Below, one piece after another: positions 4,857 through 20,739 of a stretch of DNA of 64,000 nucleotides (position 1 is its first letter; every line of letters begins with the position of its first letter). Source of the DNA: a virus; IMG/VR virus record IMGVR_UViG_3300004481_000389, one strand, 5' to 3'. The position numbers and the translations under genes are program-made. The notes under the pieces were generated by a model that saw only the letters and a program-made list of their open reading frames with translations, searched no databases and had not been told where the DNA came from.

Positions 4857-4860
4857 GTCT

Positions 4861-4908
4861 GCACTTATACAGTTATACGTTTATGCGGTTATGCACTCAT
4901 GCACCCTG
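4861..4908. promoter_or_regulatory. 8-bp-periodic repeat array A (6 units)
   Basis: gcacttat|acagttat|acgtttat|gcggttat|gcactcat|gcaccctg. Lies between the terminator and the methyltransferase-terminase operon. Confidence 0.55.
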
Positions 4909-4995
4909 GGGATAGCTCAGTATAGGAAAATCAAAGGATTTGACCTGGTTTGCCCTTGCTTCAATACAGCGTTCAAGTGGTAAACGGTGTTTGAT

Positions 4996-5718
4996 ATGCA
5001 GTTAATACAAGGCGATTGCCTGGAAAAAATGAAATTAATCCCGGATCAAAGTGTGGACCTGATTTTGACCGACCCGCCGTATGGCACCACGGCCTGTAAA
5101 TGGGATTCAGTCATTGATTTTGGCTTGATGTGGGCCGAACTAAAGAGAATCATTAAACCCAACGGCGCAATCGTGCTATTTGGTGCAGAGCCATTTTCTA
5201 GCCTACTCCGGGCAAGCAATATTAAGCAGTTTCGCTATGACTGGATCTATGAAAAGCCAGCTGCTACAGGCTTCTTAAACGCAAAAAAGCAACCTTTACG
5301 CGCTCATGAGATTATCAGCGTATTTTATGCCCGCCAGCCGATCTATAACCCTCAGAAAACCACTGGCCAGCGCCGTAAACAATCAGCCAGGACAGATATA
5401 GGAAGTGAATGTTATGGAAAGGCCATTAAACGCCAGGTTTATGATTCTACAGAGCGTTACCCGCGATCTATTCAAAAATTTAACAGTGATAAGCAGAAAC
5501 AATCCCTTCACCCTACCCAAAAGCCAGTAGCCCTACTGGAATACCTGATCAAGACTTACACCCAGGAAGGAGAGACAGTTTTGGATTTCACAATGGGATC
5601 GGGTAGCACCGGGGTTGCTTGTCTCAATACCGGGCGTGATTTTATTGGTATCGAGTTGGATGCTCATTATTTTGAAATTGCCAGCACCAGGATAGCCCAG
5701 GCCCAGGCGACCAAATAG
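4996..5718 (+). CDS. DNA methyltransferase (N6-adenine/N4-cytosine, beta-class), orphan
   Basis: LILTDPPYGT catalytic motif, HPTQKPVALLEYLI, and the VLDFTMGSGSTGVAC SAM-binding motif. No endonuclease gene is adjacent. ATG 4996 is preferred over GTG 4987. Confidence 0.85.
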   Translation: MQLIQGDCLEKMKLIPDQSVDLILTDPPYGTTACKWDSVIDFGLMWAELKRIIKPNGAIVLFGAEPFSSLLRASNIKQFRYDWIYEKPAATGFLNAKKQPLRAHEIISVFYARQPIYNPQKTTGQRRKQSARTDIGSECYGKAIKRQVYDSTERYPRSIQKFNSDKQKQSLHPTQKPVALLEYLIKTYTQEGETVLDFTMGSGSTGVACLNTGRDFIGIELDAHYFEIASTRIAQAQATK

Positions 5719-5777
5719 GAAAATCAAAGCTTTTCGCTGTTTTTGATCCGCTTAAATGAAGTCTTGATTTTGTAAGA

Positions 5778-6242
5778 GTGGATTCAATGACACAAGCGAC
5801 TGCACCCCAGGGCCTTAGAGCTACCGCCAGGATTAAAAGCCAGTTTAAGCGATACAAGAAAATAGCTTGGTCCGTGGGGTTTGCTGCTATCTGGGCGTAC
5901 CTCTTTATTTTTTACACGCTTGTTAAAAGTACGGCGGGCTGTCTATCTGGCATGTATGTCTGCCGTATGGATAACGCGCCGTTTGATCTGGGTCCTATCG
6001 TGATTAGCTGGCTTGTTTATTTGGGCATGGTTATCGCCACAATTAAGCTGGCCACAAAAGTTGACCTGGTTCAATCGGCCCTGACTGATTATGAGCAAGA
6101 GCAGCTGCAATTGGTCGCAATGCAAGATGCTTATATGCGAAGTGCTGAAATTGCAGAATCCAGGGATAACTTGCACGGGACCTATCACAGCAAAGTTTAC
6201 AGTGCCGCCGTCCGTGACATTGAAAACATTATTAATAAGTGA
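5778..6242 (+). CDS. membrane protein (2-3 predicted TM helices)
   Basis: Hydrophobic segments IAWSVGFAAIWAYLFIFYTLV and LGPIVISWLVYLGMVIATIKLA. Lies directly upstream of the terminase. Confidence 0.5.
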   Translation: MDSMTQATAPQGLRATARIKSQFKRYKKIAWSVGFAAIWAYLFIFYTLVKSTAGCLSGMYVCRMDNAPFDLGPIVISWLVYLGMVIATIKLATKVDLVQSALTDYEQEQLQLVAMQDAYMRSAEIAESRDNLHGTYHSKVYSAAVRDIENIINK

Positions 6243-6251
6243 TGTTATCAA

Positions 6252-7775
6252 ATGGTTAAGCGCGTTTTATTACACCAGGACCCAAGATGGCCCGAATTTT
6301 GTGAACGATTTGCACCGGATATTGTTCGTTTTGTGATTGAGGTTATTGGCCTAGAGCCAACGCCTCACCAGATTGAATTGCATAGATCCGTGGCTTGTTC
6401 CCGTTCCAGGACAAGTGTTGCTTCTGGTCATGGTACGGGTAAAACGTCCGGTACTTCTCACATTGTCTTATGGCACCTACTTTGTTTCCCTATGTCCGTT
6501 ACGCTGATTACAGCGAACGACATGGACCAGTTGAAAGCGACCATGTGGAAGGAGATTGGCACCAACGTTGAACGTATCCGGGCCAATCCTAACTATGGCT
6601 GGATTGCGGATCATATCGAAGTCCTGGCGAATGCCACAATGCGTATTAAGGGCTTTGAAGATACCTGGTTTGTGGAATCTAAAACAGCCAACGCCAAAAC
6701 CGCTAACAAAATGGCGGGCCGTCATGGTGAATGGCTATTGGTCATTGTCGATGAGGCAAGTACCGTACCAGATGAAGTGACAACCACACTTCTAGGCGCA
6801 TTGACAGAACAGCATAACCGAATGCTGATGAACTCACAGCCTACCCGTAATGCGGGCTTTTTCTGGCGTACACATCATGAGTTATCGCTGGCCAACGGCG
6901 GGGAATGGAATAACCTTGTATTTAGTTCAGTAGATTCGCCCCTGGTATCTGATGATGCCTTGATGGCCCTATGGAACTCATACGATGATGATGAAAGGCG
7001 GGTGCGTTTACTGGGCTTATTCCCGCAAGATTCATCAAAGCACATGATGAGTTTGCGCGTAGCTATGAAAATGTATAGCTATGGCCGAATTATTGATGAA
7101 AGTGAGCCATACGGCTATTTACTCACAAATGACGTTGCATCTGGTGAAGGTGTCCGCGATAAATCTGCAATCGTGGCGATCCGGGTGATTGGTTACGGTG
7201 ATGTAGGACCCGAAGCCAGGCGGGTTGAAGTAATTGAAATCCCATTATTCACCAACGGCGTAAGATCCAACAAATTAGCTGGCCGCATTATGGGATCTGG
7301 CCAGGAATACCCGGACAATACAAAAGTAGTCGATAGCGGCGGCTTAGGTATTAACGTATGCCAGGATCTTGAGGATGCCAACCAGGTCATTATACGGGTA
7401 AACTGGGGAAATCCATGTTTCCAGAACAAGAATAAGGATCGTTATTTAAATTTACGCGCTCAGGCCATGCACCAGGCCGCCAGGGCTGCAAAAGAGGGTC
7501 GACTTAGTATATTGACCCCGGCATATAAAAAAGAGCTTCTAGCGCAATCTAGCCGCATTCCTAAATCATTCACTGATAAAGGACGAATTAGGGTCCCGCC
7601 TAAGCATAGTCCTGAATGGGAGGGGATGGGTTCACCCGATTTATGGGATGCAATCTGTTTTGCTTTCCTGGAAAACGTATCTTATATCGCTACTGAGAAG
7701 GATTTAGATAATGTGGATGAGGTAGGTAAGAGCCTGGAAGAAGAAGCGGCGGCGGCTTTTGATGATATTGAGTGA
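6252..7775 (+). CDS. terL: terminase large subunit
   Basis: Walker A SGHGTGKTS, Walker B LLVIVDEAS, 507 aa, acidic C-terminus. Confidence 0.8.
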   Translation: MVKRVLLHQDPRWPEFCERFAPDIVRFVIEVIGLEPTPHQIELHRSVACSRSRTSVASGHGTGKTSGTSHIVLWHLLCFPMSVTLITANDMDQLKATMWKEIGTNVERIRANPNYGWIADHIEVLANATMRIKGFEDTWFVESKTANAKTANKMAGRHGEWLLVIVDEASTVPDEVTTTLLGALTEQHNRMLMNSQPTRNAGFFWRTHHELSLANGGEWNNLVFSSVDSPLVSDDALMALWNSYDDDERRVRLLGLFPQDSSKHMMSLRVAMKMYSYGRIIDESEPYGYLLTNDVASGEGVRDKSAIVAIRVIGYGDVGPEARRVEVIEIPLFTNGVRSNKLAGRIMGSGQEYPDNTKVVDSGGLGINVCQDLEDANQVIIRVNWGNPCFQNKNKDRYLNLRAQAMHQAARAAKEGRLSILTPAYKKELLAQSSRIPKSFTDKGRIRVPPKHSPEWEGMGSPDLWDAICFAFLENVSYIATEKDLDNVDEVGKSLEEEAAAAFDDIE

Positions 7776-7978
7776 ATAAATTAGATTTGATTTAATATTT
7801 TTATTAGTCAAAAGCTTTTATTTCATGATCTATTGATATACAATGCTTTCCGTCAGCTAAACGGCGCTGATAGCAGAAAAACTAATTGAGGCCATGCTCT
7901 AATCGAAAAGTCTGCTGCTTGTGGTGTTTTTAGTTTTTTACACAGGCTCCAACCAAATTTAAAGTTACTTTTTGATGC

Positions 7979-8012
7979 CCGCTATTACCCCCCAGTAATA
8001 GCGGTTTTTTTT
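7979..8012 (+). terminator. Rho-independent terminator
   Basis: CCGCTATTAC-ccccca-GTAATAGCGG followed by T8. It lies 200 nt beyond the terL stop. Confidence 0.75.
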
Positions 8013-8032
8013 GCTTGTGTGTTTCTCCCAGG

Positions 8033-8061
8033 TATAAAAAAAGCCCCGGTTAAAGGGCTTT
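8033..8061 (-). terminator. Rho-independent terminator (minus strand)
   Basis: On the minus strand, AAGCCC-tttaaccg-GGGCTT followed by T7. Lies after the 8073-8441 gene. Confidence 0.55.
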
Positions 8062-8072
8062 AGTCTGAAAAA

Positions 8073-8441
8073 TTAATCCCAGCTTGAAGATGAACTTGAA
8101 CTGCTGCTATCACAGCTAGATGAGCCGCCGTCATAGCTGGATGAGCCACTATAACCGCTTGAATGGTGGTTGCTTGAGGTGCCAGAACTATAGCAATTAT
8201 CACTATGGCCCCTGGTAGGTTGATCATCATTCAAAGCTGAGGCAAGTAATATTGTGTTTTGCTGCTGTATATAGCCGGATGATAGATTGCTTGATGAGTT
8301 ACCCGATCCGGTACGCTTAATATCTGGCTTAGGCACTGTATTAAAATGTGTTGCACGGGCCTTGAGTTGTTTAGCCTTACAGTCGCATTTCACTTGTGAT
8401 GAAAAAAACCAACGTTTATTGCAGATATTACATTTAGCCAC
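8073..8441 (-). CDS. Cys-motif N-terminus plus extremely Ser-rich tail; function unknown
   Basis: CNICNKRWFFSSQVKCDC at the N-terminus. The C-terminal half is roughly 45 percent Ser and ends CDSSSSSSSSSWD. Confidence 0.5.
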   Translation of the reverse strand: MAKCNICNKRWFFSSQVKCDCKAKQLKARATHFNTVPKPDIKRTGSGNSSSNLSSGYIQQQNTILLASALNDDQPTRGHSDNCYSSGTSSNHHSSGYSGSSSYDGGSSSCDSSSSSSSSSWD

Positions 8442-8488
8442 TTTATGATCCCGGCAAAAATTAAGATTAGAAAAGAAAAAAACCCCGG

Positions 8489-8713
8489 TTAAAGGGCATT
8501 TTTCCTATAGAAGTCGAATATATGAGCTACTGCTTCATCATTGGTACAGTCCTCACCCTGGTTCTGCAGCTGCTCTTTTACCTGGCTAACCAACTCAATA
8601 TCTTTTTGATTCTGATAGTAGGCTTTTTTGGTTAGTCCCTGGGCCTTTTTACGCTGTTCAGTAACCTTGCGCCGTTCATAGGCTGTCATTGGTTTTGGCT
8701 TGGTCTTTTCCAT
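8489..8713 (-). CDS. small basic protein, possible RHH-like or RepB/YbfE-like DNA-binding regulator
   Basis: MTAYERRKVTEQRKKAQGLTKK followed by helical segments. Operator site 2 lies 40 bp upstream. Confidence 0.5.
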   Translation of the reverse strand: MEKTKPKPMTAYERRKVTEQRKKAQGLTKKAYYQNQKDIELVSQVKEQLQNQGEDCTNDEAVAHIFDFYRKNAL

Positions 8714-8752
8714 TGATATTCCCTTAAAAGCTTATTCTGCAATATTATACAG

Positions 8753-8765
8753 GTGATAATATCAC
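8753..8765. promoter_or_regulatory. Palindromic operator GTGATA-A-TATCAC (site 2)
   Basis: On the minus strand it sits just upstream of a perfect TATAAT (8744-8749), that is, in a promoter spacer. Confidence 0.5.
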
Positions 8766-8775
8766 ATTAAATAGC

Positions 8776-9093
8776 TCAAGATATGGATTGCGAGCGAATA
8801 GAGTAAGCGCCATTTACCCAGCCATCCTGGTAGTCTACTTCGGGTCCCTTAATCATGACGGCGTGAGGCTGAACATCGGACCAATTCATGTTGTTTGAAG
8901 CCCAGTCATGTATTGCGTAGGCGCTTTGGGTGAAGTAAGGCAGGGTATCATCCTTGAGGCTTTCATTTACATCACCGTTGTAATCTATACCAGCATAGAA
9001 TTTAGCCCGATCCTCAGCAATCAGGCGCATAGGTACGGCCCATTCGCTGCCGTCATCCATTGTGATCACGTATTGACTATTCAAAATGCTCAT
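8776..9093 (-). CDS. hypothetical protein
   Basis: 105-aa ORF, last gene of a five-gene coupled leftward operon. Confidence 0.6.
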   Translation of the reverse strand: MSILNSQYVITMDDGSEWAVPMRLIAEDRAKFYAGIDYNGDVNESLKDDTLPYFTQSAYAIHDWASNNMNWSDVQPHAVMIKGPEVDYQDGWVNGAYSIRSQSIS

Positions 9094-9545
9094 TGGTTTT
9101 CTTCCTTTTTTTCCTTAATGCAATCTTCTAGGTGTTGAATTGCTTTGGCCTGGCTCCTGAATGGACCTTGCCAGCATCCATTCAGGTATATATCCCACTC
9201 GGTAAGGCCATGTTCTACAATCTTATTCATCTGGACGGTGCCAAAAAATGGGACCTCATGCGCCCACCAGATTTCATTATCATCTGTGCCAAATTCAATT
9301 TTTGAGTTTTGGGCCACTGCCTCAGCCTTATAAGCTCCTTCTGCGTACTTGATCAGATTTGCTACTGGTGTGCCTTTCATAAACCAGGTTTGTTCAATCA
9401 TGCAGTCATTCTTTAGGGCTGTATGATCCTCTACCGTTTTAATAATCTGAGGGATCAGTTCACCAAATTCAGTCACAAAATCTAAAGGCTTGCCAGCACA
9501 TAGATTTAATAAAGCCACATCGAGCTTAGTCATTGATTCGCTCAT
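9090..9545 (-). CDS. hypothetical protein
   Basis: 151-aa ORF with 4-nt overlaps on both sides. Confidence 0.6.
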   Translation of the reverse strand: MSESMTKLDVALLNLCAGKPLDFVTEFGELIPQIIKTVEDHTALKNDCMIEQTWFMKGTPVANLIKYAEGAYKAEAVAQNSKIEFGTDDNEIWWAHEVPFFGTVQMNKIVEHGLTEWDIYLNGCWQGPFRSQAKAIQHLEDCIKEKKEENQ

Positions 9546-9835
9546 TTATCTGACCCCTGAACATAGTTTTCATCAAAATCAGGCGATCCAGGTGTGGCAA
9601 ATGTCTCTTGTGATCCATATTCCTCAGCAAGATAGGCGTTAAAAAACTCTTTTTTATTCATGAGTTCATAGCCTTCGGGTAATGAATCCTCGGCCTGTTT
9701 GATGAGGGATCGGATTGTTTCCGGTGTTGGGTACTGACCTAGCGGCAAGCTTGCTTTTACTATGGCCTGGGTCCCGGTTTCCTGGTTAATCCCGTATATG
9801 CCTAGCTCAAGCTTGATCGGTGCATTCATTTCCAT
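9542..9835 (-). CDS. hypothetical protein
   Basis: 97-aa ORF with coupled overlaps. Confidence 0.6.
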   Translation of the reverse strand: MEMNAPIKLELGIYGINQETGTQAIVKASLPLGQYPTPETIRSLIKQAEDSLPEGYELMNKKEFFNAYLAEEYGSQETFATPGSPDFDENYVQGSDK

Positions 9836-10221
9836 TAGTTTTGTTCCTGTTTGTATGTAATATCAAGTTGCTCTTTTACCCAATCACACCAGGTAAAAAA
9901 GCCGTGTAAAATTGGCTGTATATTCTGAGTATCTGACCAACCAGCAAAGCCAATAAAGCCGCCTTTCTCAAAAGCGATACATTGCCGTCCGGTGAAATAA
10001 AACGCCTGGCAGTTAAAACTTGCCTCAAATACCCCGCCTTTATCGCTACTGGTGTACTTGATCCGGCCATGACAGGAAAATGAGCCATCGAGATAGCCAC
10101 TTTCCTTGAGGTTCTGATTCACCACGGCGCGAAGCTTCTTAAAGTGGTCTTTAGTAATGTTCTGGTAGCTCAGGCCGCATTCATTGAAATAGGCCCGTGC
10201 CTGGTCCCTGGTGAGTTCCAT
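9835..10221 (-). CDS. hypothetical protein
   Basis: 128-aa ORF with coupled overlaps. Confidence 0.6.
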   Translation of the reverse strand: MELTRDQARAYFNECGLSYQNITKDHFKKLRAVVNQNLKESGYLDGSFSCHGRIKYTSSDKGGVFEASFNCQAFYFTGRQCIAFEKGGFIGFAGWSDTQNIQPILHGFFTWCDWVKEQLDITYKQEQN

Positions 10222-10223
10222 AG

Positions 10224-10754
10224 TTACCCCTTGCTGCTGGTATGAAATTCAATAAATTGGTCCGGTGTTTCAAATACTGGGGAATCCATGTCTAGCCGCT
10301 TCATTGCTTCTACTTCTTTGGTCCATCCCAGGCGTTCAGCAATTTGCATGTAAGCACTTGGGTTGCCCATTTTAATCTGCATGATTGCGGCACCCGCACA
10401 CTGGCTAGTCTTTTCATCATAGGTATATGTGCCGTCCTCATGTTCGCCGTCCTCATCATCCCTAGCGCCACCAGTGGTTTTGTGACAGGGGAATGACTGA
10501 CCCATTTTAAAGGTGCTGAATGCAATCCCTTCTGCACGGGCCTTGCCTAACCAGCCTTTATTGTGTGCTGGTAGATCATTACGGAAAGGACAGTTTTTAC
10601 ATGGGCTACTAAGCTTGAATGACTTGATTTCGTCCTTTTTCGCTTCTGGCGTATTACCTGGCTCCGGTTGCAGTGCTGGTTCAGGTTGTTCAGCTGGATC
10701 TGCTAAGACTTCTTCTGAATCAAAAGTTGTTGCAGCATTGCGGGTTAATTTCAT
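10224..10754 (-). CDS. Cys-motif protein (resembles the DUF6283-type CxxCPFR...FPCH family)
   Basis: CKNCPFRND...SFPCHKTTGG. Start moved to the MKLTRNAA codon because the track start (10796) lies inside operator site 3. Confidence 0.6.
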   Translation of the reverse strand: MKLTRNAATTFDSEEVLADPAEQPEPALQPEPGNTPEAKKDEIKSFKLSSPCKNCPFRNDLPAHNKGWLGKARAEGIAFSTFKMGQSFPCHKTTGGARDDEDGEHEDGTYTYDEKTSQCAGAAIMQIKMGNPSAYMQIAERLGWTKEVEAMKRLDMDSPVFETPDQFIEFHTSSKG

Positions 10755-10783
10755 AGTGATTAGCCTTAATCGTTTGATGATTG

Positions 10784-10796
10784 GTGATATTATCAC
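10784..10796. promoter_or_regulatory. Palindromic operator GTGATA-T-TATCAC (site 3)
   Basis: Perfect inverted repeat 30 bp upstream of the leftward operon start. Confidence 0.5.
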
Positions 10797-10956
10797 AATG
10801 ATATTAAATTAGTTAGTTTTTATTTAATTTTGTTGATTTAAATAAGCCTTAGACTTATTATTGCAGCACGGATGCTCTTAGTCCTTATGTTTTGTGGTTG
10901 GTCAGCTTCACTGGGTCGTGCAAGTTGATTGCTCGATAGTGTCAGAACAGCAAGAT

Positions 10957-10982
10957 AGCCAGCGTAAAAAGCTGGCTTTTTT
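10957..10982 (+). terminator. Rho-independent terminator in an intergenic region with no CDS upstream
   Basis: AGCCAGC-gtaaaaa-GCTGGCT followed by a T-run. Confidence 0.7.
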
Positions 10983-11006
10983 GTATCTGCTTTCAGGTAA
11001 ATAGAT

Positions 11007-11702
11007 ATGAACGATAAAGATATTGAACAGTTAATTCATGGTAAGGCACCAATTGGGCCACGCATGACTGCTGAAATGGTTGAAAGCCTGATTAAAGATA
11101 TTGAATACACCTTGTTACCCAATAAACGCTCTACTGTCTGCTCTATTACCCTGGTAAACGGCTTTATGGTAAACGGCGTTAGCTCACTCATTAGTAGCTT
11201 TGATTATGATGAGGAAGTGGGCAAGATTACAGCGCATAAAAAAGCAATGGCTGAGGTTTGGGACGTGGCCAGCATCTTATTCACGGAAAAAATGCACCAA
11301 AACCAGACTAAAAGAGACAATGTATCAAGAGGTGAGCAGCTTTACTTCATCCACCATAAGGGCGGGATCTATAAGCTGCTGCATATTGCCAAGAATGAGG
11401 CTGATTCTAGTGAGGCCGCCGTATATCAAAGCCTGATGACTGGCGAAGTCTGGACCCGTCCAGCCAGTGAGTTTTATGAAAAATTCACATGCTGTATGGA
11501 TGATCCGAATTTTGATTATGAAAAGTCCTGGTTACAAGAGGAATGTAATCAAGTTCTGGCCAGATATAACAAGCTTGAGAAAAAGATTAGCCAGGGCCAG
11601 CCGGAAAACATGACAACGGCGCAATGGCAGCTGTTAAATCGTCATTTACTGGTACAGCGTGAGGATTATGAAATTACACAATGCCGCCTAGAGGATTGCT
11701 AA
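11007..11702 (+). CDS. two-domain protein: N-terminal Gp49/Sf6-gp66-like region plus C-terminal DUF1653-like region
   Basis: N-terminal segment TVCSITLVNGFMVNGVSS...VGKITAHKKA. C-terminal segment YFIHHKGGIYKLLHIAKNEADSSEAAVYQSLMTGEVWTRPASEF. Confidence 0.6.
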   Translation: MNDKDIEQLIHGKAPIGPRMTAEMVESLIKDIEYTLLPNKRSTVCSITLVNGFMVNGVSSLISSFDYDEEVGKITAHKKAMAEVWDVASILFTEKMHQNQTKRDNVSRGEQLYFIHHKGGIYKLLHIAKNEADSSEAAVYQSLMTGEVWTRPASEFYEKFTCCMDDPNFDYEKSWLQEECNQVLARYNKLEKKISQGQPENMTTAQWQLLNRHLLVQREDYEITQCRLEDC

Positions 11703-11716
11703 TCTACCAGGCACAA

Positions 11717-11748
11717 AAAACCCGGATCAATGTCCGGGTTTATTTTTG
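11717..11748 (+). terminator. Rho-independent terminator
   Basis: AAACCCGGA-tcaatg-TCCGGGTTT followed by ATTTTT. Confidence 0.7.
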
Positions 11749-11886
11749 GTTAATTAAAAGATAGGTAAAAGTCTATAATTTAAACGGCGCTAGTGGATTT
11801 TCACAATCTATGTGTTATCTTTACTGGGCTGTAACTAGCCTTACAGTTTGATGATGACATTCCCGACTGCCATATTGGGAATGGGA

Positions 11887-11917
11887 AAGCCCCCTTCTAG
11901 CCGAGGGGGCTTTTTTT
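11887..11917 (+). terminator. Rho-independent terminator (plus strand; the hairpin also lies just 3' of rep on the minus strand)
   Basis: GCCCCCT-tctagccg-AGGGGGC followed by T7. Confidence 0.7.
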
Positions 11918-11922
11918 ATGTC

Positions 11923-12900
11923 TTATTTAAAGCCAGCCTCTACCAGATAATCTTTTAACTCCATGCGGGTCTTAGGATCAACCAGCATGTCAATTGTTCT
12001 CATGGCCAGCTGTTCATATTGCTCATTTTGCCCGCCATATTTACCCCCGAATGAATGTAGGCGGCTTAATTTGGTTGCAAATGTTGTGATTTGGCTATCA
12101 GTCATGGTTAGAATTTTGCGGTTCAGCTTATTTTCTTCTGATTCTTCTATCGCTTTCTTGCTGACTTTCTCAACTGTCGGCTTCATCTTTAGTTTGAAAT
12201 TAAAGCCTGATACCACGCGACCCGTCTTGATTTGGTCACACTCTACTTCAATATCCGTATGGGCGTTAATCTGTTTTAAAGCTGGATTTAGGACCCTGGC
12301 CTTAAAGTCGGGGATACGCTGATATTCCGTTTCCTCAATTCCTAAGCTAAAGCGTAGATCTGAAAGTTGAATAGTCGGCGTTTTGCCTACCTCACGCCAA
12401 GCAATGAGGATTTCATATAGTCTGACCGCATACTTACTTTTAAGTTCTGCAATCTGGCCCAGCTTATACCAGGTAAAGTGCTTATGATTGCGCGTAATCA
12501 ATGGCACTACTACTGGGGCAAATGCCAGGGTTACACAGCCTTGTTCTTCACAATAGCCGACTTCACTCACCCAACGAGATTTAATATAAAACTCTTTACC
12601 TTCTCTAATTTCCTTGTAGGTAAATTTACGCTCAAAAAGATTCTTAGCAGCTGTTTTAAGGGCCTCATAAGCACCACTTCTATTGGTGTTAAAGCAATCC
12701 ATATAGTTCTGAGCATGGATAATCAATCTGCTATCTGCAGTAATACCTTGTCCGGTTTCTCTAGCACCTACAACCGCGAGTAAAATCATTCGCTGTTCGA
12801 TAAGATCCAGATTGTAGCTGGCATTGATAAGCATATTGTCTTTAACGACAAGTTGTTTGGTGTCCATAAAATAGCCTTGATGTTGACGATGATTGCTCAC
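11923..12900 (-). CDS. rep: plasmid replication initiator, Rep_3 (RepB/RepA iteron-binding) family
   Basis: LVVKDNMLINASYNLDLIEQRMILLAV... is the typical Rep_3 N-terminal winged-helix motif. Size is 325 aa and iterons lie directly upstream. Confidence 0.85.
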   Translation of the reverse strand: MSNHRQHQGYFMDTKQLVVKDNMLINASYNLDLIEQRMILLAVVGARETGQGITADSRLIIHAQNYMDCFNTNRSGAYEALKTAAKNLFERKFTYKEIREGKEFYIKSRWVSEVGYCEEQGCVTLAFAPVVVPLITRNHKHFTWYKLGQIAELKSKYAVRLYEILIAWREVGKTPTIQLSDLRFSLGIEETEYQRIPDFKARVLNPALKQINAHTDIEVECDQIKTGRVVSGFNFKLKMKPTVEKVSKKAIEESEENKLNRKILTMTDSQITTFATKLSRLHSFGGKYGGQNEQYEQLAMRTIDMLVDPKTRMELKDYLVEAGFK

Positions 12901-12904
12901 TGCA

Positions 12905-12937
12905 ATTAATAGACAATATATTTCAATGTCTACTAAT
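12905..12937. promoter_or_regulatory. Inverted pair of iteron-core half sites in the rep promoter (probable autorepression operator)
   Basis: ATTAATAGACAAT (inverted, 11/13 match) and AATGTCTACTAAT (direct) are separated by 7 bp, 5-37 bp upstream of the rep start. Confidence 0.45.
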
Positions 12938-12980
12938 AAGCAATAAGCTTTTCAATTGTCTGATGAATTACTACTCACAA

Positions 12981-13012
12981 GCGTTATGCGCCTAAGCACT
13001 TATGCACGGTAA
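12981..13012. promoter_or_regulatory. Short 8-bp-periodic array abutting the first iteron
   Basis: agcgttat|gcgcctaa|gcacttat|gcacggta. Same unit family as arrays A-D. Confidence 0.35.
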
Positions 13013-13089
13013 ATGTCTACTTATGAAATTAGATGGCTATTCCTGCCCGGAGAATGTCTACTTATATGCACGGTAAATGTCTACTTATA
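13005..13089 (+). repeat. oriV iteron cluster 1 (3 iterons of 21 bp)
   Basis: GCACGGTAAATGTCTACTTAT at 13005 and 13069. GCCCGGAGAATGTCTACTTAT at 13046. Confidence 0.8.
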
Positions 13090-13262
13090 AATACTCGAAG
13101 GCCCGTATTTATTGGGTTTATGTGATTTAGCACTTATTGCTGTGGAGGATATTAAAGAGCATCTAAACATTATTATTAGGCATAGTTTATTATATTAATT
13201 TTAATTAGTTTAAGGCTAATTTATACCTGAGTAAAAATAAATCTAATGTGTGAAAACTACAT
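13090..13262. other. AT-rich spacer between iteron clusters (candidate DNA-unwinding region)
   Basis: Visibly AT-rich, with runs such as attattattaggcatagtttattatattaattttaattagttt. Confidence 0.5.
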
Positions 13263-13370
13263 TAACGGTAAGTGTCTATTTATGCCCGGAGAATGTCTAC
13301 TCATTGCCCGGAGAATGTCTACTAATAGCACGGTAAATGTCTACTAATAGCACGGTAAATGTCTACTAAT
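13263..13370 (+). repeat. oriV iteron cluster 2 (5 iterons at 21-22 bp spacing)
   Basis: Starts at 13263 (degenerate), 13284, 13306, 13328 and 13350. Two sequence classes are present: GCCCGGAGAATG... and GCACGGTAAATG.... Confidence 0.8.
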
Positions 13371-13691
13371 GAAGCTGAAAAGGCTTGCTGTGCAAGGGTT
13401 TCAAGCTGCCTAAAAGCATTTAAAAACATTTAAAAGTATATAAAAGCCAAATCTTATTTTTTTTTAATTTTAATTTTAAGAATGTTTAAGGGTAGTAAAT
13501 ACCGTTTAATATTCAAGTTTAGGCTCTCTAATTTTTATTACAGTGATTAATAGATTTTGATTATTTAAATTAATCCTGGGTTACTCATTAATAAAATTTA
13601 ATAACAGTATTGTGATTCTTGTTAATAAGATCTAGCCTATAAGATAGATTGTAAATCAAAGTATTCACACCTAAGAACAAAACTACATAAA

Positions 13692-13952
13692 TTGGACATT
13701 TTCATCATGAAATCTTACACCGTTGTTATTTTTAAAAAGTCAGAATTAAGTCTTGATGCTTTAATTCACGATAATGAGCGTTTAGAGCATGTTTCACATA
13801 AAAGCTATACCGACATAGCCGAAGCATACGAAAACCTCAAAATAGCGCAATCTGAGGGAAATGAGGCTATATTATTATCTGATTCACTGATTACCGATCT
13901 GTTTACTACTACTGTTAAAAAAAAGGTAAATAGAGTTTTAAGCATAGTCTGA
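13692..13952 (+). CDS. hypothetical protein
   Basis: 86-aa ORF (alternative ATG at 13707) followed by a hairpin and T-run at about 13973-14001. Confidence 0.45.
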   Translation: MDIFIMKSYTVVIFKKSELSLDALIHDNERLEHVSHKSYTDIAEAYENLKIAQSEGNEAILLSDSLITDLFTTTVKKKVNRVLSIV

Positions 13953-14018
13953 TTGATTTTGTAATTTTAAGGAGGTCCGGGATAAGTCCAGGGCCTTTTT
14001 ATTTTGCCTATTGAAATT

Positions 14019-14031
14019 GTGATAACATCAC
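14019..14031. promoter_or_regulatory. Palindromic operator GTGATA-A-CATCAC (site 4, one mismatch)
   Basis: Lies exactly within the 17-nt spacer between TTGAAA (14011) and TATATT (14034). Confidence 0.45.
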
Positions 14032-14072
14032 AGTATATTGAGGCCTCATTCATCAAATGAAATAGGCTAGGT

Positions 14073-14513
14073 ATGAAATTTGATTACAGCTCTTTTAAAT
14101 CTGAGGGTATAAACCGTAACCGGGATCTGGTAGGGACAGTACAAGGGACCTTTCAGGGGCAAGAAATTACTTGTCGTGCTTACCAGGCTTCAAACAGTGA
14201 TTTAGTTATTGCTGGATTCATGGGAAAAAATAAGGCTTATAACCGCCTATGGGTTGCTACCGTCTGGCTGGAAAAAGATAACCAGTTACGCTTTTATTTT
14301 GGCTTTGAAAGCAAACCGAAGCGCAACGGCGCATCTGACCTTGTTTATGATCCTGATGGATATTTTGAACAGGCACCTAAGCATTTGTTTAATGTGGACC
14401 CATCCAGCATAGAGGAAAACGCATATTGCCATCGTTGCGGAAAGGACGTTGTTCTAGTGCATGGTGAATGTTCTGATTGTGAGCTTTATTTTGCAAAAAA
14501 ATACGATTACTAA
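14073..14513 (+). CDS. hypothetical protein with a C-terminal zinc ribbon
   Basis: CHRCGKDVVLVHGECSDCELYF near the C-terminus. Confidence 0.55.
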   Translation: MKFDYSSFKSEGINRNRDLVGTVQGTFQGQEITCRAYQASNSDLVIAGFMGKNKAYNRLWVATVWLEKDNQLRFYFGFESKPKRNGASDLVYDPDGYFEQAPKHLFNVDPSSIEENAYCHRCGKDVVLVHGECSDCELYFAKKYDY

Positions 14514-14545
14514 AAAAATGCCCTGATTTTTTCAGGGCTATTTGC
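14513..14545. terminator. Bidirectional terminator
   Basis: GCCCTGA-tttttt-TCAGGGC flanked by an A-run and a T-rich tract, between convergent genes. Confidence 0.65.
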
Positions 14546-14571
14546 TAATTGATATATGTTGTAGCCTGCCC

Positions 14572-15126
14572 TTATTTGTAAGGGCTTTCCTTTTTTGCGC
14601 GTACCTTCTTAAAGTGCTGGTTTACCAGGTCCCAGGCCATATCTTTATTTTTTCGCACTCTTGCCCGGTTCTGATTCAGCTTTTTCATTGCCCAGGGCCG
14701 TTTTTTCGCAATAATGGTCCCTATCCTTTCCCAGTCCTCACTTTTATCAGCTGCAGTGCGCCCATGCTCACCAAAAGCAGCAATCAGGGTCTTATTTGAT
14801 GTGCTGCAATCAAACAGGCCTTGTAGCATTCTATGTGCCAGGGTCGCCGTCATATCAAGCTCATATTCAATGGCCAGCGTATATAGGACCACAAGCATTA
14901 ACCCTGCTTTACGCTTCCTGGACAAAATCGACCACTGGGCCGCATGTTGTGGGTCCATAACGGCCATAGTGTCATGTAGATAACTTGGATCTGGTACCAG
15001 GGATTCATGATCGTATTTATGGTAATTGATCCGGTTGAAAATTAATTGTTCTGCATCTTTTGTGTAGTCTTGGAGACTATAGGGCTTATGCCTGGTGTAG
15101 AAGTCCCTCATTTTTTCAATATTCAT
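14572..15126 (-). CDS. hypothetical protein with a basic C-terminus
   Basis: 184-aa ORF; no motif recognised. Confidence 0.55.
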   Translation of the reverse strand: MNIEKMRDFYTRHKPYSLQDYTKDAEQLIFNRINYHKYDHESLVPDPSYLHDTMAVMDPQHAAQWSILSRKRKAGLMLVVLYTLAIEYELDMTATLAHRMLQGLFDCSTSNKTLIAAFGEHGRTAADKSEDWERIGTIIAKKRPWAMKKLNQNRARVRKNKDMAWDLVNQHFKKVRAKKESPYK

Positions 15127-15231
15127 GTTTACTCCATTGTCGAGGCTAAAACATATATCGCTTAGCTTGGTCGATTTTGAGGTTATAACATGAGTTGTGC
15201 GCCGTTGTATATCAAGCGATTAGCTGGCATT

Positions 15232-15251
15232 AAAAAGCCCCTTTCGGGGCG
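15232..15251 (-). terminator. Rho-independent terminator (minus strand)
   Basis: On the minus strand, GCCCC-gaaa-GGGGC followed by TTTTT, right after the 70-aa gene. Confidence 0.6.
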
Positions 15252-15254
15252 TAT

Positions 15255-15467
15255 TTATGGAATGTCTTTAATACATTCATCAATCAGGCTGGTTAAATGG
15301 TCCTTCATGTTTAGTCTGTTTTGCGCCAGATAGATCTTATAGCGTCTGTGGCGATCCTCAGACAATACCAGGCTGCTACGCACGGTTGGACCTATATCCT
15401 TAATGCTTTCCAATTGCTGAGCTTTGCGTTTATCGCCCTGGTCCTTTTTGGATTTAATTTCTAACAT
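15255..15467 (-). CDS. small ribbon-helix-helix-like protein, candidate ParG-type centromere-binding partner of ParA
   Basis: 70 aa with a basic disordered N-terminus, then RSSLVLSEDRHRRYKIYLAQNRLNMKDHLTSLI (strand-helix-helix pattern). Lies downstream of parA. Confidence 0.55.
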   Translation of the reverse strand: MLEIKSKKDQGDKRKAQQLESIKDIGPTVRSSLVLSEDRHRRYKIYLAQNRLNMKDHLTSLIDECIKDIP

Positions 15468-15485
15468 TTAACATTCCTGGGTCAT

Positions 15486-15549
15486 GCACTTATGCGGTTA
15501 TACACTTATACAATTATGCACTTATGCTATCAAGTGCATAAGTGCATAT
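15486..15549. promoter_or_regulatory. 8-bp-periodic repeat array B (8 units; last two inverted)
   Basis: gcacttat|gcggttat|acacttat|acaattat|gcacttat|gctatcaa|gtgcataa|gtgcatat. Lies between parA and the RHH gene. Confidence 0.6.
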
Positions 15550-15556
15550 ATTTGAA

Positions 15557-16201
15557 TTAAGTCTTGTCTGAGAGGTATTTAGCTTTGATTTCTTCTGCTA
15601 GTTTCCAAGCGTCTTTAGCTGCATTGGAATTAGGTGCATAGTCGTGAACAGTCAAACCTTTAGCAATTGATTTTGTGTAGTCGATGTACTGAAAAATAAC
15701 TGTATCTAACACGGGTAGTTCATAGCCAGCCAAAACGCTAGAAACTTCTTTACCCAGTGACGTATTTGCAATTACACGAGATACCAGGAAAGTAGCCTTT
15801 AATTTTTCATCTGTAAGCTCGATACGTTGTTTAACCATATCTACCAGGTCGGACGTTGCCCATATATCAAGTGGTGAAGGCTGGACTGGGATAATAACTA
15901 AATCGGATGCTTTAATTGCTGACGCGCTCATTTGTTCTAAAGAAGGTGCGCCGTCAATAATGACAATATCCATATTGGATAGAGATTTAATGTCTTTATG
16001 AATCGTTGGGCGGTCAATAGCGAAAACTGGCACCGGGTTATTTTCATCTACTTCCTTCCAGTCGCGGGCGCTACCTTGTGGATCTGAATCAACCAGGGCA
16101 ACTTCCATACCCATTTTTTGAAAAGCACGTGCAAGATTAAGTGAATTTGTAGTCTTACCAGCGCCGCCTTTTTGATTGAGCAAAGAGATAACAAAAGCCA
16201 T
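15557..16201 (-). CDS. parA: ParA-family partition ATPase (small, type Ib-like)
   Basis: Deviant Walker A LNQKGGAGKTT; 214 aa; DSDPQGS; IIDGAP. Confidence 0.9.
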   Translation of the reverse strand: MAFVISLLNQKGGAGKTTNSLNLARAFQKMGMEVALVDSDPQGSARDWKEVDENNPVPVFAIDRPTIHKDIKSLSNMDIVIIDGAPSLEQMSASAIKASDLVIIPVQPSPLDIWATSDLVDMVKQRIELTDEKLKATFLVSRVIANTSLGKEVSSVLAGYELPVLDTVIFQYIDYTKSIAKGLTVHDYAPNSNAAKDAWKLAEEIKAKYLSDKT

Positions 16202-16301
16202 TTTTTAATTTCCAGTTTGATGATGAATCCATTGAAGTATAAGGCTTTACGTGCCTCTGTCAATAAAATAAAGGCCCAAAAATCAGCTATTTGTATATTT
16301 T

Positions 16302-16343
16302 AAGTGCATATACATTTATGCACTTATACATTTAAGTGCATTT
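16302..16343. promoter_or_regulatory. 8-bp-periodic repeat array C1 (alternating orientation)
   Basis: aaGTGCATat|acatttat|GCACTTat|acatttaa|GTGCATtt. That is AAGTGCAT/ATGCACTT arms with 8-bp spacers, upstream of parA. Confidence 0.55.
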
Positions 16344-16422
16344 TGTAGAAGTTTCATAGCCTGGGTGATTGATAGCTTTTTAATCTAATTATTTGATTTA
16401 ATTAAAATCAATTTTATAAAAA

Positions 16423-16454
16423 GTGCATAACCGCATAAGTGCATGAGTGCATTT
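16423..16454. promoter_or_regulatory. 8-bp-periodic repeat array C2 (4 units)
   Basis: gtgcataa|ccgcataa|gtgcatga|gtgcattt. Lies between divergent parA and the 16542 operon. Confidence 0.55.
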
Positions 16455-16541
16455 CTAGGGATATTGCCTAGATAGGAAAACAGGAGATTAACCGTATTTT
16501 TTTTATCTCATGATGAGATAAATATACATACAGGTTGTCTT

Positions 16542-17372
16542 ATGAAAACTGATTTAGTACAACCCCCATTGATCCGCTACAACCTCAAGGAACGTGGCAG
16601 ACAATTTAGAGGGGTAGAACGTAATTTCGATATTCCGGCTATCGTTGCTGCTATCAATTCACCCGCTTGCCAGGAGAGAGTTAAAACCCGTGGCATGTTG
16701 GGATACCTGGGCCACTGGGTCCGTATTCGTTTTGGTTTAGAGCCGCCGGAAGGTGGGATTGCTCAAGGCAAGGCTTATGCTGTTGAGCCAGCCATTGTGA
16801 CGACCTACCTTAAAGCATACCCAAACGGCGATATTGAGCATCAAACAGAATTTTTAGATACCGATCCAGGCCGTATTGCTGCGCGTATGTATGCAAACGA
16901 AGTCGGCGGCTTTAGTTCTGCCATCGATGAAAATAAACCGACCTTTTACGGCTTTGACTGGGTGAATGATCCGAACTATTCAACCAATCGCGGGTACAGC
17001 TTGACCCTGGATAGCGTGGTAGAGGGTGGAATGACCCTAGATGATGTTTTGGCTGCTGAATTGCAAGATCGTACCCAAGCTATGAACATGCTTTTAGAGA
17101 GAAGCGAGTACCGTGAAAAACTAGCCCTGGATAGCGCCGTTGCCTTGCGTAATGAAAATGAGCAGCTGTTATCTCTATTGGCTGAGTACGACAAAAAATC
17201 AGATGCGCCAGAAGTGCCAATTTCAACCAATGAGGCCACAATGCGTATGGAGCGTGATAAGGCGGTGTTTGATTCAGCTGGTATCTTACCAACCTTCAAA
17301 GAGCAAAGTAGCGAACAGGACAAGAAAGATGAACGTGCGTATCGATCAATTCGTTCAATGGTGGTTCGCTAA
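16542..17372 (+). CDS. possible prohead protease/scaffold protein (weak motif-level call)
   Basis: GMLGYLGHW and GGFSSAIDE resemble the His and Ser regions of T4 gp21-type prohead proteases as I recall them. The C-terminus is acidic and coiled-coil. Confidence 0.45.
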   Translation: MKTDLVQPPLIRYNLKERGRQFRGVERNFDIPAIVAAINSPACQERVKTRGMLGYLGHWVRIRFGLEPPEGGIAQGKAYAVEPAIVTTYLKAYPNGDIEHQTEFLDTDPGRIAARMYANEVGGFSSAIDENKPTFYGFDWVNDPNYSTNRGYSLTLDSVVEGGMTLDDVLAAELQDRTQAMNMLLERSEYREKLALDSAVALRNENEQLLSLLAEYDKKSDAPEVPISTNEATMRMERDKAVFDSAGILPTFKEQSSEQDKKDERAYRSIRSMVVR

Positions 17373-18121
17373 TGTTTGAGCCAGTTAAAATCGCTTTAGG
17401 TGAGTATCTGCAAGGCTTTTATAATGAGCTTGTGCCAACTACGCCAGCGTTAAAAGAGTTCAAGAAGCGTGGCTTTTCGTATGGCTTTGTTTATGCGCCT
17501 AGCCGCCTGGTGGATCAGGCAAGTGACATGCTGGCCGCCTGGCAAAAAAACGATACCACGGGCAAGCCAACAACCCCGGCAAAGTTACCCGTGATTATTA
17601 TCGGGATGGCGAAGGACTACACCCCAACCGGACGGGATTTTAACTATCAAATTTCGGATAGCGTGGAAATCATGTTACCCGATGATGCCAAAGAGCGTTA
17701 TTTTGAAGTTAAAACTATTGCGGGTGATTTGCGGGTCCAGCTGGTGATTTGTACGAGTGATGAAGCAACGGCGAAAAGTATAGCTGCTCAGCTGTTGTTA
17801 TATGTGGATTCACCCGTGCGCCGTGGTTTTGATGCGGTTTATACATTCGCCAAAAATGATGTGAGATTCCCTTGCCAAATTGAGGCCCCGGATAGCCCGG
17901 CTTCAAGTGTGGATACAGGGAGTTCAAATGTCACAATGCTGGCGATTGATTTTAATCTGCATTGCACGGTACCGCTTTATAGTGCGCCAGATGAGAATGA
18001 GCCGAACGATGGTAAAGGGTCCGGCCCTGATGATCCAAGTGGATTCCCGCTAGTGCAGCAAGTTAATCAAGAAGATCAAACGACTGTTAAAAACGGGCGT
18101 GATGTTGATGTGACTGATTAA
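17372..18121 (+). CDS. hypothetical structural-module protein
   Basis: 249-aa ORF whose start overlaps the upstream stop. Confidence 0.55.
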   Translation: MFEPVKIALGEYLQGFYNELVPTTPALKEFKKRGFSYGFVYAPSRLVDQASDMLAAWQKNDTTGKPTTPAKLPVIIIGMAKDYTPTGRDFNYQISDSVEIMLPDDAKERYFEVKTIAGDLRVQLVICTSDEATAKSIAAQLLLYVDSPVRRGFDAVYTFAKNDVRFPCQIEAPDSPASSVDTGSSNVTMLAIDFNLHCTVPLYSAPDENEPNDGKGSGPDDPSGFPLVQQVNQEDQTTVKNGRDVDVTD

Positions 18122-18489
18122 CACGGTCTGAGTGAGTGATGTTGTTTAAGTTCCTGGTACTCGATACGTTCATCGTAACGTCTACAGGCCTCGTTAAGTG
18201 TTTCGGCATTTAATGAGGCGATCCCCTCCATTAAATTATCCGGTCTAATCAGGACTGCATCATATATTCCCATTGAATCCTTATAGATAACTTTAAGTGT
18301 GGCCAGGTTGTGATTGAGCTGGACCAATGAGGCTAAAACATTGTGCATATCATTGGTGACACTTGTATTGCCCAGGTCTAAATCTTCAATAACCAGAAAG
18401 CCTGGATCTAGTAAAAAATACTTAAAATCTGCGGTACCAAGCAAATTATTAATACCCTTTTTGGCTTTGGTTTTGTTCTGAAACTGCAT
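18118..18489 (-). CDS. hypothetical protein; lone minus-strand gene in the head region
   Basis: 123-aa ORF containing LVIEDLDLGNTSVTNDMHNVL. Arrays D1 and D2 lie upstream. Confidence 0.5.
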   Translation of the reverse strand: MQFQNKTKAKKGINNLLGTADFKYFLLDPGFLVIEDLDLGNTSVTNDMHNVLASLVQLNHNLATLKVIYKDSMGIYDAVLIRPDNLMEGIASLNAETLNEACRRYDERIEYQELKQHHSLRPC

Positions 18490-18572
18490 GTCTTAAAGCC
18501 TTATATATTCGATGATTCAGACTATTTTAAACTTTTAAGTCTCTGTAAAGCAAAGCATGTTGTATTTATATT

Positions 18573-18636
18573 GTGCGTATAAGTGCAAAACTGCATAGCT
18601 GTATAGGTGCATAAGTGCAAGGTTGCATAGGTGCCA
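18573..18636. promoter_or_regulatory. 8-bp-periodic repeat array D1 (about 8 units)
   Basis: TGC/TGT recurs at 18584, 18592, 18600, 18608, 18616, 18624 and 18632, plus 18574. Units resemble gtgcataa, ctgcatag and ttgcatag. Confidence 0.6.
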
Positions 18637-18660
18637 ATTTACCTTATCAATCTAGGCCAG

Positions 18661-18717
18661 GTGCATGAGTGCATAACTGCACGGGTGCAGAATTGCATAG
18701 GTGCATAACTGTGTAGG
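18661..18717. promoter_or_regulatory. 8-bp-periodic repeat array D2 (7 units)
   Basis: gtgcatga|gtgcataa|ctgcacgg|gtgcagaa|ttgcatag|gtgcataa|ctgtgtag. Confidence 0.6.
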
Positions 18718-18793
18718 CAGTATTGGAAAACCAAGTAAATCAGGCAAACAGGGCTAAATAGAATACCTCCATAGGCTCTATGGGAGTAAACAC

Positions 18794-19285
18794 ATGAAGC
18801 AAAAAATACAAGCGAATATACAAGGCTATAAAGGCCGGCCCGCTAGTTTGTTTGGATTGCATGACACTGAAACGAGTGTACTTGTTATTGCCAAACTATC
18901 CACAAAAAGAATGGACCCGCAACCTGGCTGTGCATTCATTACCAATCAGTTAAGAACGGAACATGATTTCTATATAGATGAAACCAAGTTGCTTGATTCA
19001 ATTTCAAGTTATTACCGACTTAAAAACGGTCTGGCCAAAAACAATGAGACAGCATTATTGCGAATTGACCCTAAAGCGGGGAATGCAGATCCATCAAGCG
19101 GCATTGAAATGGACGGCGTATCGGGGCGGGGGATGGAATACCGTATTTCGCCTGACGTTACCAATGCACAAATCGCGCTGTTAGCTATGTGCTTGTATGT
19201 GGAAGGTTCATCCACGGTTAATGACACGCTGGAAATGTTCGATGAATTAGAGGCATTGATGGAAGGTAACTGGTTGACGATATGA
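18794..19285 (+). CDS. hypothetical head-module protein
   Basis: 163-aa ORF, first gene after array D, with a GGGAG RBS. Confidence 0.55.
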   Translation: MKQKIQANIQGYKGRPASLFGLHDTETSVLVIAKLSTKRMDPQPGCAFITNQLRTEHDFYIDETKLLDSISSYYRLKNGLAKNNETALLRIDPKAGNADPSSGIEMDGVSGRGMEYRISPDVTNAQIALLAMCLYVEGSSTVNDTLEMFDELEALMEGNWLTI

Positions 19286-20696: not shown

Positions 20697-20739
20697 ATTT
20701 TTCGGGCCATTAATCTGCTAATCAAAAATAGGTTTAGAT

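Follow-up and report, generated by a model that had tools for sequence, protein, structure and literature searches.

How a phage-plasmid keeps some sixty virion genes silent while it replicates and is partitioned as a plasmid is poorly understood outside P1 and N15. The question is raised again by the viral record IMGVR_UViG_3300004481_000389, a stretch of 64,000 nucleotides (the window) that is a distant P1-like phage-plasmid of Acinetobacter lwoffii. Arrays of an 8 bp-phased repeat unit lie here around parA and the gene of a 70 amino acid ribbon-helix-helix (RHH) protein, beside the replication region, and in front of packaging and morphogenesis operons. Is every one of these arrays read by the same protein, and what would that protein do at each of them? 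The sequence-only reading of the window had proposed that the RHH protein binds them all and couples segregation, access to the origin and silencing of the lytic genes. The reading favoured here, with a probability of roughly 0.65, is that the RHH protein would bind all of the arrays, which would together make up its centromere and its regulon.

The array unit is framed as WW followed by RTGCAY, with a forward unit of AAGTGCAT and a reverse unit of ATGCACTT. Units follow one another without gaps in every array, including where their orientation switches. Across the whole 64 kb there are seven arrays, A1 to A7, with 41 units in total, in five intergenic regions (Table 1). The consensus of 40 units registered by hand is GTGCATAA, with counts per position of G26/40, T33/40, G40/40, C32/40, A37/40, T34/40, A32/40 and A26/40. 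The seven arrays are all within a few bp of where the sequence-only reading had placed them and, as it had said, all are intergenic, with none found within a credible coding region of the window. Its range of four to eight units per array holds for six arrays, the exception being A2 with three. The exact 8-mer GCACTTAT/ATAAGTGC, for which at least 11 occurrences had been counted against about 2 expected, occurs 11 times (7+4), and 9 of the 11 are inside arrays. The remaining two copies of GCACTTAT, at 1-8 (the very first bases of the window) and at 13130-13137, are isolated and probably due to chance. The arrays claimed ahead of the methyltransferase-terminase operon (A1) and between parA and the protease operon at 16542 (A5, upstream of pro) are present, as is one ahead of the operon at 18794 (A7). 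This last operon had been called a head operon, but by PHROG it is baseplate/tail, without head-protein matches, and is a late structural operon.

Table 1. Arrays, partition and replication genes, promoter elements and array-associated operons of the window, in order of position.
Feature	Positions	Strand	Description
A1	4859-4906	-	6 contiguous units, ATGCACTT as read on the + strand
TATAGGAAAA box	4921..4930	+	candidate late-promoter element, 14 nt past A1
methyltransferase-terS-terL operon	4987..7775	+	DNA methyltransferase, putative small terminase, large terminase; downstream of A1
repA	11923..12900	-	Rep3-type initiator; 22-bp iterons at 13004-13090 and 13265-13370
A2	12986-13009	-	mini-array of 3 units, ATGCGCCT AAGCACTT ATGCACGG, between repA and the first iteron
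Terminator-like hairpin	15237..15250	-	end of the parA-RHH operon
RHH gene	15255..15467	-	70 aa; basic disordered tail, ribbon TVRSSLVL, two helices; candidate array-binding centromere protein/regulator
A3	15484-15547	mixed	8 contiguous units, 6 reverse then 2 forward; parA/RHH spacer
parA	15557..16201	-	214 aa, type Ib Walker-type ATPase, deviant Walker A KGGAGKT, without N-terminal DNA-binding domain
parA promoter	16236..16263	-	sigma-70-like TTGACA-16-TATACT, 11/12 matches
A4	16302-16341	mixed	5 contiguous units (> < < < >), AAGTGCAT ATACATTT ATGCACTT ATACATTT AAGTGCAT
A5	16421-16452	+	4 units, AAGTGCAT AACCGCAT AAGTGCAT GAGTGCAT, upstream of the pro operon
GATAGGAAAA box	16471..16480	+	18 nt past A5
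pro operon	16542..18121	+	pro (276 aa) plus a 249-aa gene; downstream of A5
A6	18573-18636	+	8 units, orf123 side of the orf123/baseplate intergenic region
A7	18659-18714	+	7 units; immediately precedes the TATTGGAAAA box of the 18794 operon
TATTGGAAAA box	18721..18730	+	6 nt past A7
Structural operon	18794..21249	+	PHROG: baseplate wedge subunit and tail protein; downstream of A7

A position weight matrix (PWM) scan for chains of three or more units in 8 bp phase returns seven arrays and no more from the 64 kb, where shuffled sequences give 0-0.44. Because the first PWM had been trained on all of the arrays, which is circular, it was reseeded from the parA/RHH intergenic array alone. The same seven arrays were recovered, and no others. 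An autocorrelation scan that uses no motif, run over periods 5-12, flags period 8 alone, at A1, A3 and A6, and no period-8 segments are found in 40 first-order Markov simulations. Tandem Repeats Finder independently calls period 8 at A1, A3, A5, A6 and A7. The motif scan and periodicity analysis proposed with the sequence-only reading thus return seven arrays in strict 8 bp phase, and similar arrays at random or coding positions, looked for throughout the 64 kb, are not found.

The genes flanked by the densest arrays have the features of a type Ib partition system. ParA is of the small kind seen in these systems (about 200-220 amino acids, with a deviant Walker A motif and without an N-terminal DNA-binding domain), and matches Pfam AAA_31, CbiA and VirC1 and the ParA-like PHROG. 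A small RHH protein is encoded right after it, as in type Ib, the RHH fold being assigned at the grade of remote homology. The RHH gene is on the same strand as parA and 89 bp downstream, with a terminator after it, and the gene pair is kept in all relatives. A role as an antitoxin was considered and set aside, given this constant pairing with an upstream ParA and the terminator after the RHH gene. The 70 amino acid protein matches a hypothetical protein of A. lwoffii (contigs up to 79.7 kb) with 100% identity.

The relationships of the RHH protein are found at the level of profiles. Against all solved structures, its family profile has TP228 ParG (1P94) as best match, with the entire RHH domain aligned (E 0.051), and hhalign of the family against ParG gives a probability of 79% (E 1.5e-5). 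The extended RHH profile reaches the E. coli protein P0020, which is above the Pfam ParG threshold (27.4 bits). In tblastn the protein has only two weak plasmid matches, annotated ParG and ParB. The AlphaFold2 model made from the family alignment has a disordered tail followed by an extended segment and then two helices, with a predicted local distance difference test score of 88-97 over the C-terminal 40 residues. Because there are profile-level links but the protein's own scores lie below the family thresholds, it is treated as being of remote ParG/omega type and not as a Pfam family member. Judged from its sequence, it is a remote ParG/omega-type RHH protein that falls outside both Pfam families. 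The earlier description of it as RHH-like and beside a type Ib ParA is borne out by these profile matches and by the 214 amino acid ParA.

Relatives were collected via Pro, the 276 amino acid product of the pro operon, and via homologues of the RHH protein. GTGCA-type arrays are found at homologous places in L001, L006, L007, L013, L022 and L023-25, namely in the parA/RHH and parA/pro intergenic regions and in the region that separates the baseplate operon from a divergent gene of 119-123 amino acids. The packaging-operon array is also kept in L007 and L015, the loci that reach that far, and the parA/RHH array A3 has a counterpart in all relatives. The array places are kept although the lineages share only 45-80% protein identity. 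In L001, seven consecutive identical CTGCATAA units are present ahead of the baseplate operon (3531-3594), from which it follows that arrays grow by recent unit amplification. No arrays were found in L002, L004 and L005, Pro relatives from Halomonas, Ectothiorhodospira and Pseudomonas that have another gene order and in which the 7-8 bp repeats are intragenic. Likewise, the distant P1-like Acinetobacter plasmids pGFJ2, p1_010055 and p1_010030 (L010, L017 and L018) have no arrays of period 6-12.

The strongest indication of what binds the arrays comes from a lineage in which both box and protein differ. Ribbon positions T28, R30, S32 and V34 are invariant in the window, L001, L006, L007, L013 and L022, while the intervening positions vary. 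In the P0019 lineage (L011, L012, L020 and L021) the ribbon is QTRTSLSI, which is Q-x-R-x-S-x-S as against T-x-R-x-S-x-V. The arrays of this lineage are also phased at 8 bp and are at the same three places, but have AGCGCT/GGCGCT boxes in alternation with weaker RRYGCT units. Over the three homologous regions, lineages with the T-x-R-x-S ribbon have 11-19 GTGCA/TGCAC cores versus 0-6 GCGC-type cores, whereas the P0019 lineage has 1 versus 22-23, the switch being present in every region. L022 served as a prediction, its ribbon being kept in an RHH protein only 50% identical to that of the window, and GTGCA arrays were found there as predicted. The hexamer AGCGCT itself has zero occurrences in the whole 64 kb of the window.

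The P0019 lineage is no overall outlier. Pro of L012 is 71% identical to that of the window, compared with 69-70% for L006 and L013, and its RHH protein is 50% identical, compared with 46-50% for L013 and L022. The products of the neighbouring genes orf123 and orf184 are no more divergent in L012 than in L013, where the box stays GTGCA. The box switch therefore follows the DNA-facing ribbon residues and not general divergence. Since the boxes switch with the ribbon at all three regions, it is most likely that one factor binds every array and that this factor is the RHH protein. RHH ribbons are known as portable specificity determinants, with the helices setting the spacing of the boxes (PMC3413123), and this agrees with what is seen here, where the box has changed but the period is the same and the helices are invariant. 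Of the claim that the RHH protein binds the arrays, what stands is that it is the best candidate by ribbon/box covariation, and binding, taken by itself, is predicted with good confidence.

The arrays at the par locus adjoin the operon as the tandem repeats of type Ib centromeres do (A3 and A4). A3 nearly fills the 89 bp parA/RHH spacer and is a candidate centromere that could also be an operator or roadblock for the RHH gene. A TTGATA-17-TATAAG sequence inside A3 (-) is a possible promoter of the RHH gene, read by eye and not flagged by the promoter scan. The array that had been placed at parA is present as A4, which does not cover the parA promoter but lies upstream, 41 bp away from its -35. 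Overlap is seen in the relatives: in L007, L012 and L022 a unit of the kind typical of that lineage (GTGCATAG, CGCGCCAT and GTGCATCC, respectively) overlaps the -35/spacer of this promoter, which has the form of the classical autoregulatory arrangement.

Outside the par locus, orf123 has a conserved sigma-70-like promoter (18549-18521, -), and A6 is found 24 bp upstream of it. The promoter scan found no sigma-70-type promoter after A1, A5 or A7. Each of these three is followed instead by a conserved box, TAxxGGAAAAyC(A)AAGG, that has no -35-like partner, and the last TGCA core is 15-19 nt upstream of the TAxxGGAAAA box. If TAxxGG is a -10 hexamer, this core would be at the -35 position. At pro, array and box are 19-22 nt apart in seven lineages. 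The box is kept in the AGCGCT lineage and is therefore read by something other than the array binder. The late promoters of P1 (AAGTGACTT-N4-TANNAT) have no motif in common with either the arrays or the TAxxGGAAAA boxes. The pro leader also contains a palindrome with perfect 9 bp arms, TTATCTCAT-G-ATGAGATAA, at 16503-16521, about 20 nt ahead of the start codon. It is kept with small changes in L001, L007, L012, L013 and L022 and may serve as an operator or form a hairpin in the RNA.

Two partition systems with small RHH proteins provide the closest comparisons. ParG of TP228 binds ACTC boxes that are separated by 4 bp AT spacers and occur in direct and inverted orientation, with one dimer per box, and its OF and parH arrays both act as centromeres, the arrays being operator and centromere in one (PMC3130281). 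The window shares with ParF-ParG a small Walker ParA and an RHH protein of about 70-76 amino acids with a flexible N-terminal tail. As at parH, boxes and AT-rich spacers alternate with an 8 bp period ahead of the operon, and the boxes occur in both orientations. The likeness to the ParG/parH architecture that had been noted from the sequence is thus upheld by what is known of ParG at OF and parH (PMC3130281). The differences are that the box is RTGCAY instead of ACTC, that parA and the RHH gene are separated by one of the arrays, that five more are found away from the par locus (rep region and packaging/morphogenesis operons), that the RHH protein is below the Pfam ParG threshold, and that the element is a phage-plasmid.

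The omega protein of pSM19035 is an RHH partition protein that is also a global regulator. It binds 7-10 heptads overlapping the copS, delta and omega promoters, and at least four contiguous repeats fully activate ParA (PMC9499535). Short non-palindromic repeats of mixed orientation at copy-control, parA (delta) and its own promoters compare with A2, A4 and A3, so that by position the window has an omega-like layout of arrays at replication control, the parA promoter and the RHH gene. The ribbons of both proteins begin T-V-R (KTVRVR in omega, with the sequence checked, and PTVRSS in the window). In the window, however, the period is 8 bp and not 7 bp, the unit is AAGTGCAT and not WATCACW, the host is Gram-negative, no toxin-antitoxin genes are present downstream, the arrays extend to phage late operons, and the RHH protein is below the Omega_Repress Pfam threshold.

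A link between partition and late genes has a precedent in N15, where Ravin, Rech and Lane (2008, J Bacteriol 190:3538) reportedly described an influence of the Sop partition system on late gene expression, the effect being said to be facilitation through antitermination and not repression. N15 is also a phage-plasmid, and its partition sites (IR1-IR4) are scattered near late-gene control elements. It is, however, a lambdoid siphovirus, another type of phage, with a type Ia system in which the large helix-turn-helix protein SopB acts on single inverted repeats, and the window, with its 70 amino acid RHH protein and tandem arrays, is not of this type. KorB, the ParB of the IncP plasmid RK2, coordinates partition, replication and transfer genes through about a dozen operators. 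It differs in being a helix-turn-helix ParB that acts at a distance from single 13 bp palindromes and controls no phage genes. Arrays beyond the par locus had been considered unusual. In this they have precedents in omega of pSM19035 and in Sop of N15. What is new is that these features occur together: an RHH system of type Ib on a P1-like phage-plasmid, arrays placed directly at the promoters for packaging and morphogenesis, and a specificity that has switched naturally. The papers searched contain no description of this combination.

The RHH protein could also bind every array without controlling the late genes. The arrays outside par would then be dispersed centromeres that serve partition without repression, or would aid late expression as in N15. 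This is unlikely, yet of the alternatives it survives best. N15 has four scattered SopB sites, and A4 does not overlap the parA promoter in the window. All arrays but A2 have at least four contiguous units, which for omega is the smallest number that gives full activation of ParA (PMC9499535), and both OF and parH of TP228 are centromeres (PMC3130281). A pure centromere would, however, have no need of the distance of 19-22 nt that is kept across lineages between the pro-array unit and the TAxxGGAAAA box, nor of the abutment of the baseplate-operon array on its box. In addition, known RHH partition proteins repress the promoters that they coat (PMC3130281, PMC9499535).

That another phage protein is the binder, and that the position at par is incidental, is improbable. 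Candidates would be a late-gene activator, the orf123 or orf184 product, or the small terminase at a pac-like site, since three arrays precede structural or packaging operons without sigma-70-type promoters, orf123 and orf184 are conserved neighbours without a family match, and the pac site of P1 is itself a set of short hexamer repeats. It is the densest and most conserved arrays, however, that flank parA and the RHH gene, and a unit overlaps the parA promoter in relatives while parA must be on in the plasmid state. TAxxGGAAAA boxes exist without arrays and do not covary with them, and in L012, with its switched box, orf123 and orf184 diverge no more than in L013. Tandem 8 bp units of mixed orientation are a signature of RHH partition proteins and not of helix-turn-helix regulators, and seven pac sites within 14 kb would make no sense.

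Less probable by far is that the arrays are operators of a prophage master immunity repressor, scattered like the C1 operators of P1, many of which are dispersed in the annotated P1 genome. The element is P1-like, but C1 operators are single asymmetric 17 bp sites and not 8 bp tandem arrays, and the arrays correspond neither to these nor to the late-promoter motif of P1. They are at late operons and plasmid-maintenance genes instead of early lytic genes, with no array in the 10 kb of early/helix-turn-helix-regulator genes that L015 has upstream of the window start, or in positions 1-4800 of the window. An origin of the arrays by chance, or by slippage as functionless simple repeats, is effectively refuted, for although units can amplify, as in L001, no such arrays arise in shuffles and simulations, they are confined to intergenic regulatory regions and conserved in place at 45-80% protein identity, and the box changes in concert at three regions of one lineage.

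Several observations weigh against the RHH protein as binder and regulator at all of the arrays. Its score with Pfam ParG (PF09274) is 12.6 bits (E 0.16), and that of P0019 is 15.3 bits, where the threshold is 21.4 bits. With Omega_Repress (PF07764), its best match below threshold, it scores 15.2 bits where 33.3 bits is required, and a Foldseek search of the monomer model against PDB gave no matches. A4 and A2 are about 40 bp upstream of their promoters in the window and not over them. TAxxGGAAAA boxes without arrays are present at 5714-5723, 21255-21264, 39008-39017 and 46637-46646, the last two right after terminators, and the arrays are therefore no general feature of putative late promoters. 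The box is itself a candidate late-promoter element for some factor, an assignment that is presumptive. The covariation is a single evolutionary event, one lineage versus six, and the evidence from it, though good, falls short of conclusive. These lineages differ in other proteins as well, so orf123 and orf184 formally stay among the candidate binders. The contigs of the AGCGCT lineage end about 1.2 kb past the RHH gene, and the comparison covers the three regions described.

At the replication region, the array that had been described as abutting the first iteron of oriV does exist, with the last unit of A2 overlapping the first bases of an iteron. The corresponding place has a three-unit array in L024, whose Rep is the same, and also in L023, whose Rep (414 amino acids) and iterons are different. 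A2 is weak, having three units, and L007, with a third type of Rep, has only two weak units at the rep-side place. The link of the arrays to the replication region thus appears to be selected for, yet weak. Because at least four contiguous repeats are needed for activation of ParA under the omega rule, A2 is, by analogy, probably not a centromere. Nor are the arrays iterons of Rep, since iterons are 22 bp and differ among relatives that share arrays.

In the origin itself, two clusters of 22 bp iterons flank an AT-rich stretch (13150-13260), and 3.7 copies of a 10 bp repeat, TAAAAGCATT, are present at 13411-13447. Close relatives have three different Rep3 initiators with unrelated iterons, and the same par module and phage genes (L023 12000-12400; L007 12400-12900). 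The replication module has therefore been exchanged independently of the partition/array system.

Taken together, the RHH protein as centromere-binding protein and regulator could act as follows. One RHH dimer would bind one 8 bp unit, consisting of the 6 bp box RTGCAY and a 2 bp A/T spacer, and dimers would coat each array cooperatively. At A3 and A4, which flank parA and the RHH gene, this would form the partition complex with ParA and also occupy autoregulatory operators. A2 would give the protein a weak hold on repA/oriV, with a modest input there. At A1, A5, A6 and A7 it would be placed just upstream of the promoters of the packaging operon, pro, orf123 and the baseplate operon, with the promoter-proximal box at the would-be -35 position of the late promoters. 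These four arrays may double as additional dispersed centromeres. In the plasmid state the RHH protein would most likely hold the late operons down, in the manner of the global regulator omega. What we infer here is that the protein binds, that it does so as one dimer per unit, that the arrays work as centromeres, and in which direction the operons are regulated.

Repression of the late operons is a tentative proposal even where binding is granted, its chances being put at somewhat under one half. More speculative again is the fuller proposal that the RHH protein was recruited as a plasmid-state lock on the packaging, head-protease and baseplate operons, through arrays at the -35 of activator-type late promoters. 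The lock would link segregation, replication control and virion-gene silencing, and its regulon could be re-addressed by two DNA-facing ribbon residues, a change that nature seems to have made already (GTGCAT to AGCGCT).

The assignment of the element as a distant P1-like phage-plasmid is made because a Pro homologue, a Rep3-type initiator with iterons, ParA, a methyltransferase and a large terminase occur together. The 276 amino acid product of the gene at 16542 is homologous to Pro, which processes the head of P1, and to proteins on many P1-like plasmids. A megablast search of 12000-19000 against phage and plasmid reference collections gave no match and thus no near relative, and a ParA-based scan of viral contigs found no relatives. 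Two conserved genes without a Pfam or PHROG match lie in this part of the window. These are orf123 (123 amino acids, 18118-18489, -), divergent from the baseplate operon and flanked by A6, and orf184 (184 amino acids, 14572-15126, -), which comes after the par terminator. A stretch of about 900 bp ahead of A1 is gene-poor and contains a tRNA-Arg gene (anticodon TCT, 4370-4446), the sole match in an Rfam scan of the window, with a strong terminator downstream (4821-4849). A1 begins 8 nt past this terminator, upstream of the methyltransferase-terS-terL operon. The arrays are not targets tied to the neighbouring methyltransferase, as L007 keeps the packaging array and has no methyltransferase there.

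The locus provides a compact and testable link between plasmid maintenance and virion genes, with arrays of a 70 amino acid candidate centromere-binding protein at the par genes, on the origin side and at three late operons. If the RHH protein represses the late operons, a single factor serves both to maintain the plasmid and to silence the lytic genes. When that partition protein is lost or titrated away, the plasmid would become unstable and the packaging and morphogenesis genes would be unlocked. The natural pair of TVRSSLVL with GTGCAT and QTRTSLSI with AGCGCT, at an equal spacing of 8 bp, is also a system in which the reading of DNA by an RHH ribbon and the co-evolution of a regulon with its regulator can be studied.

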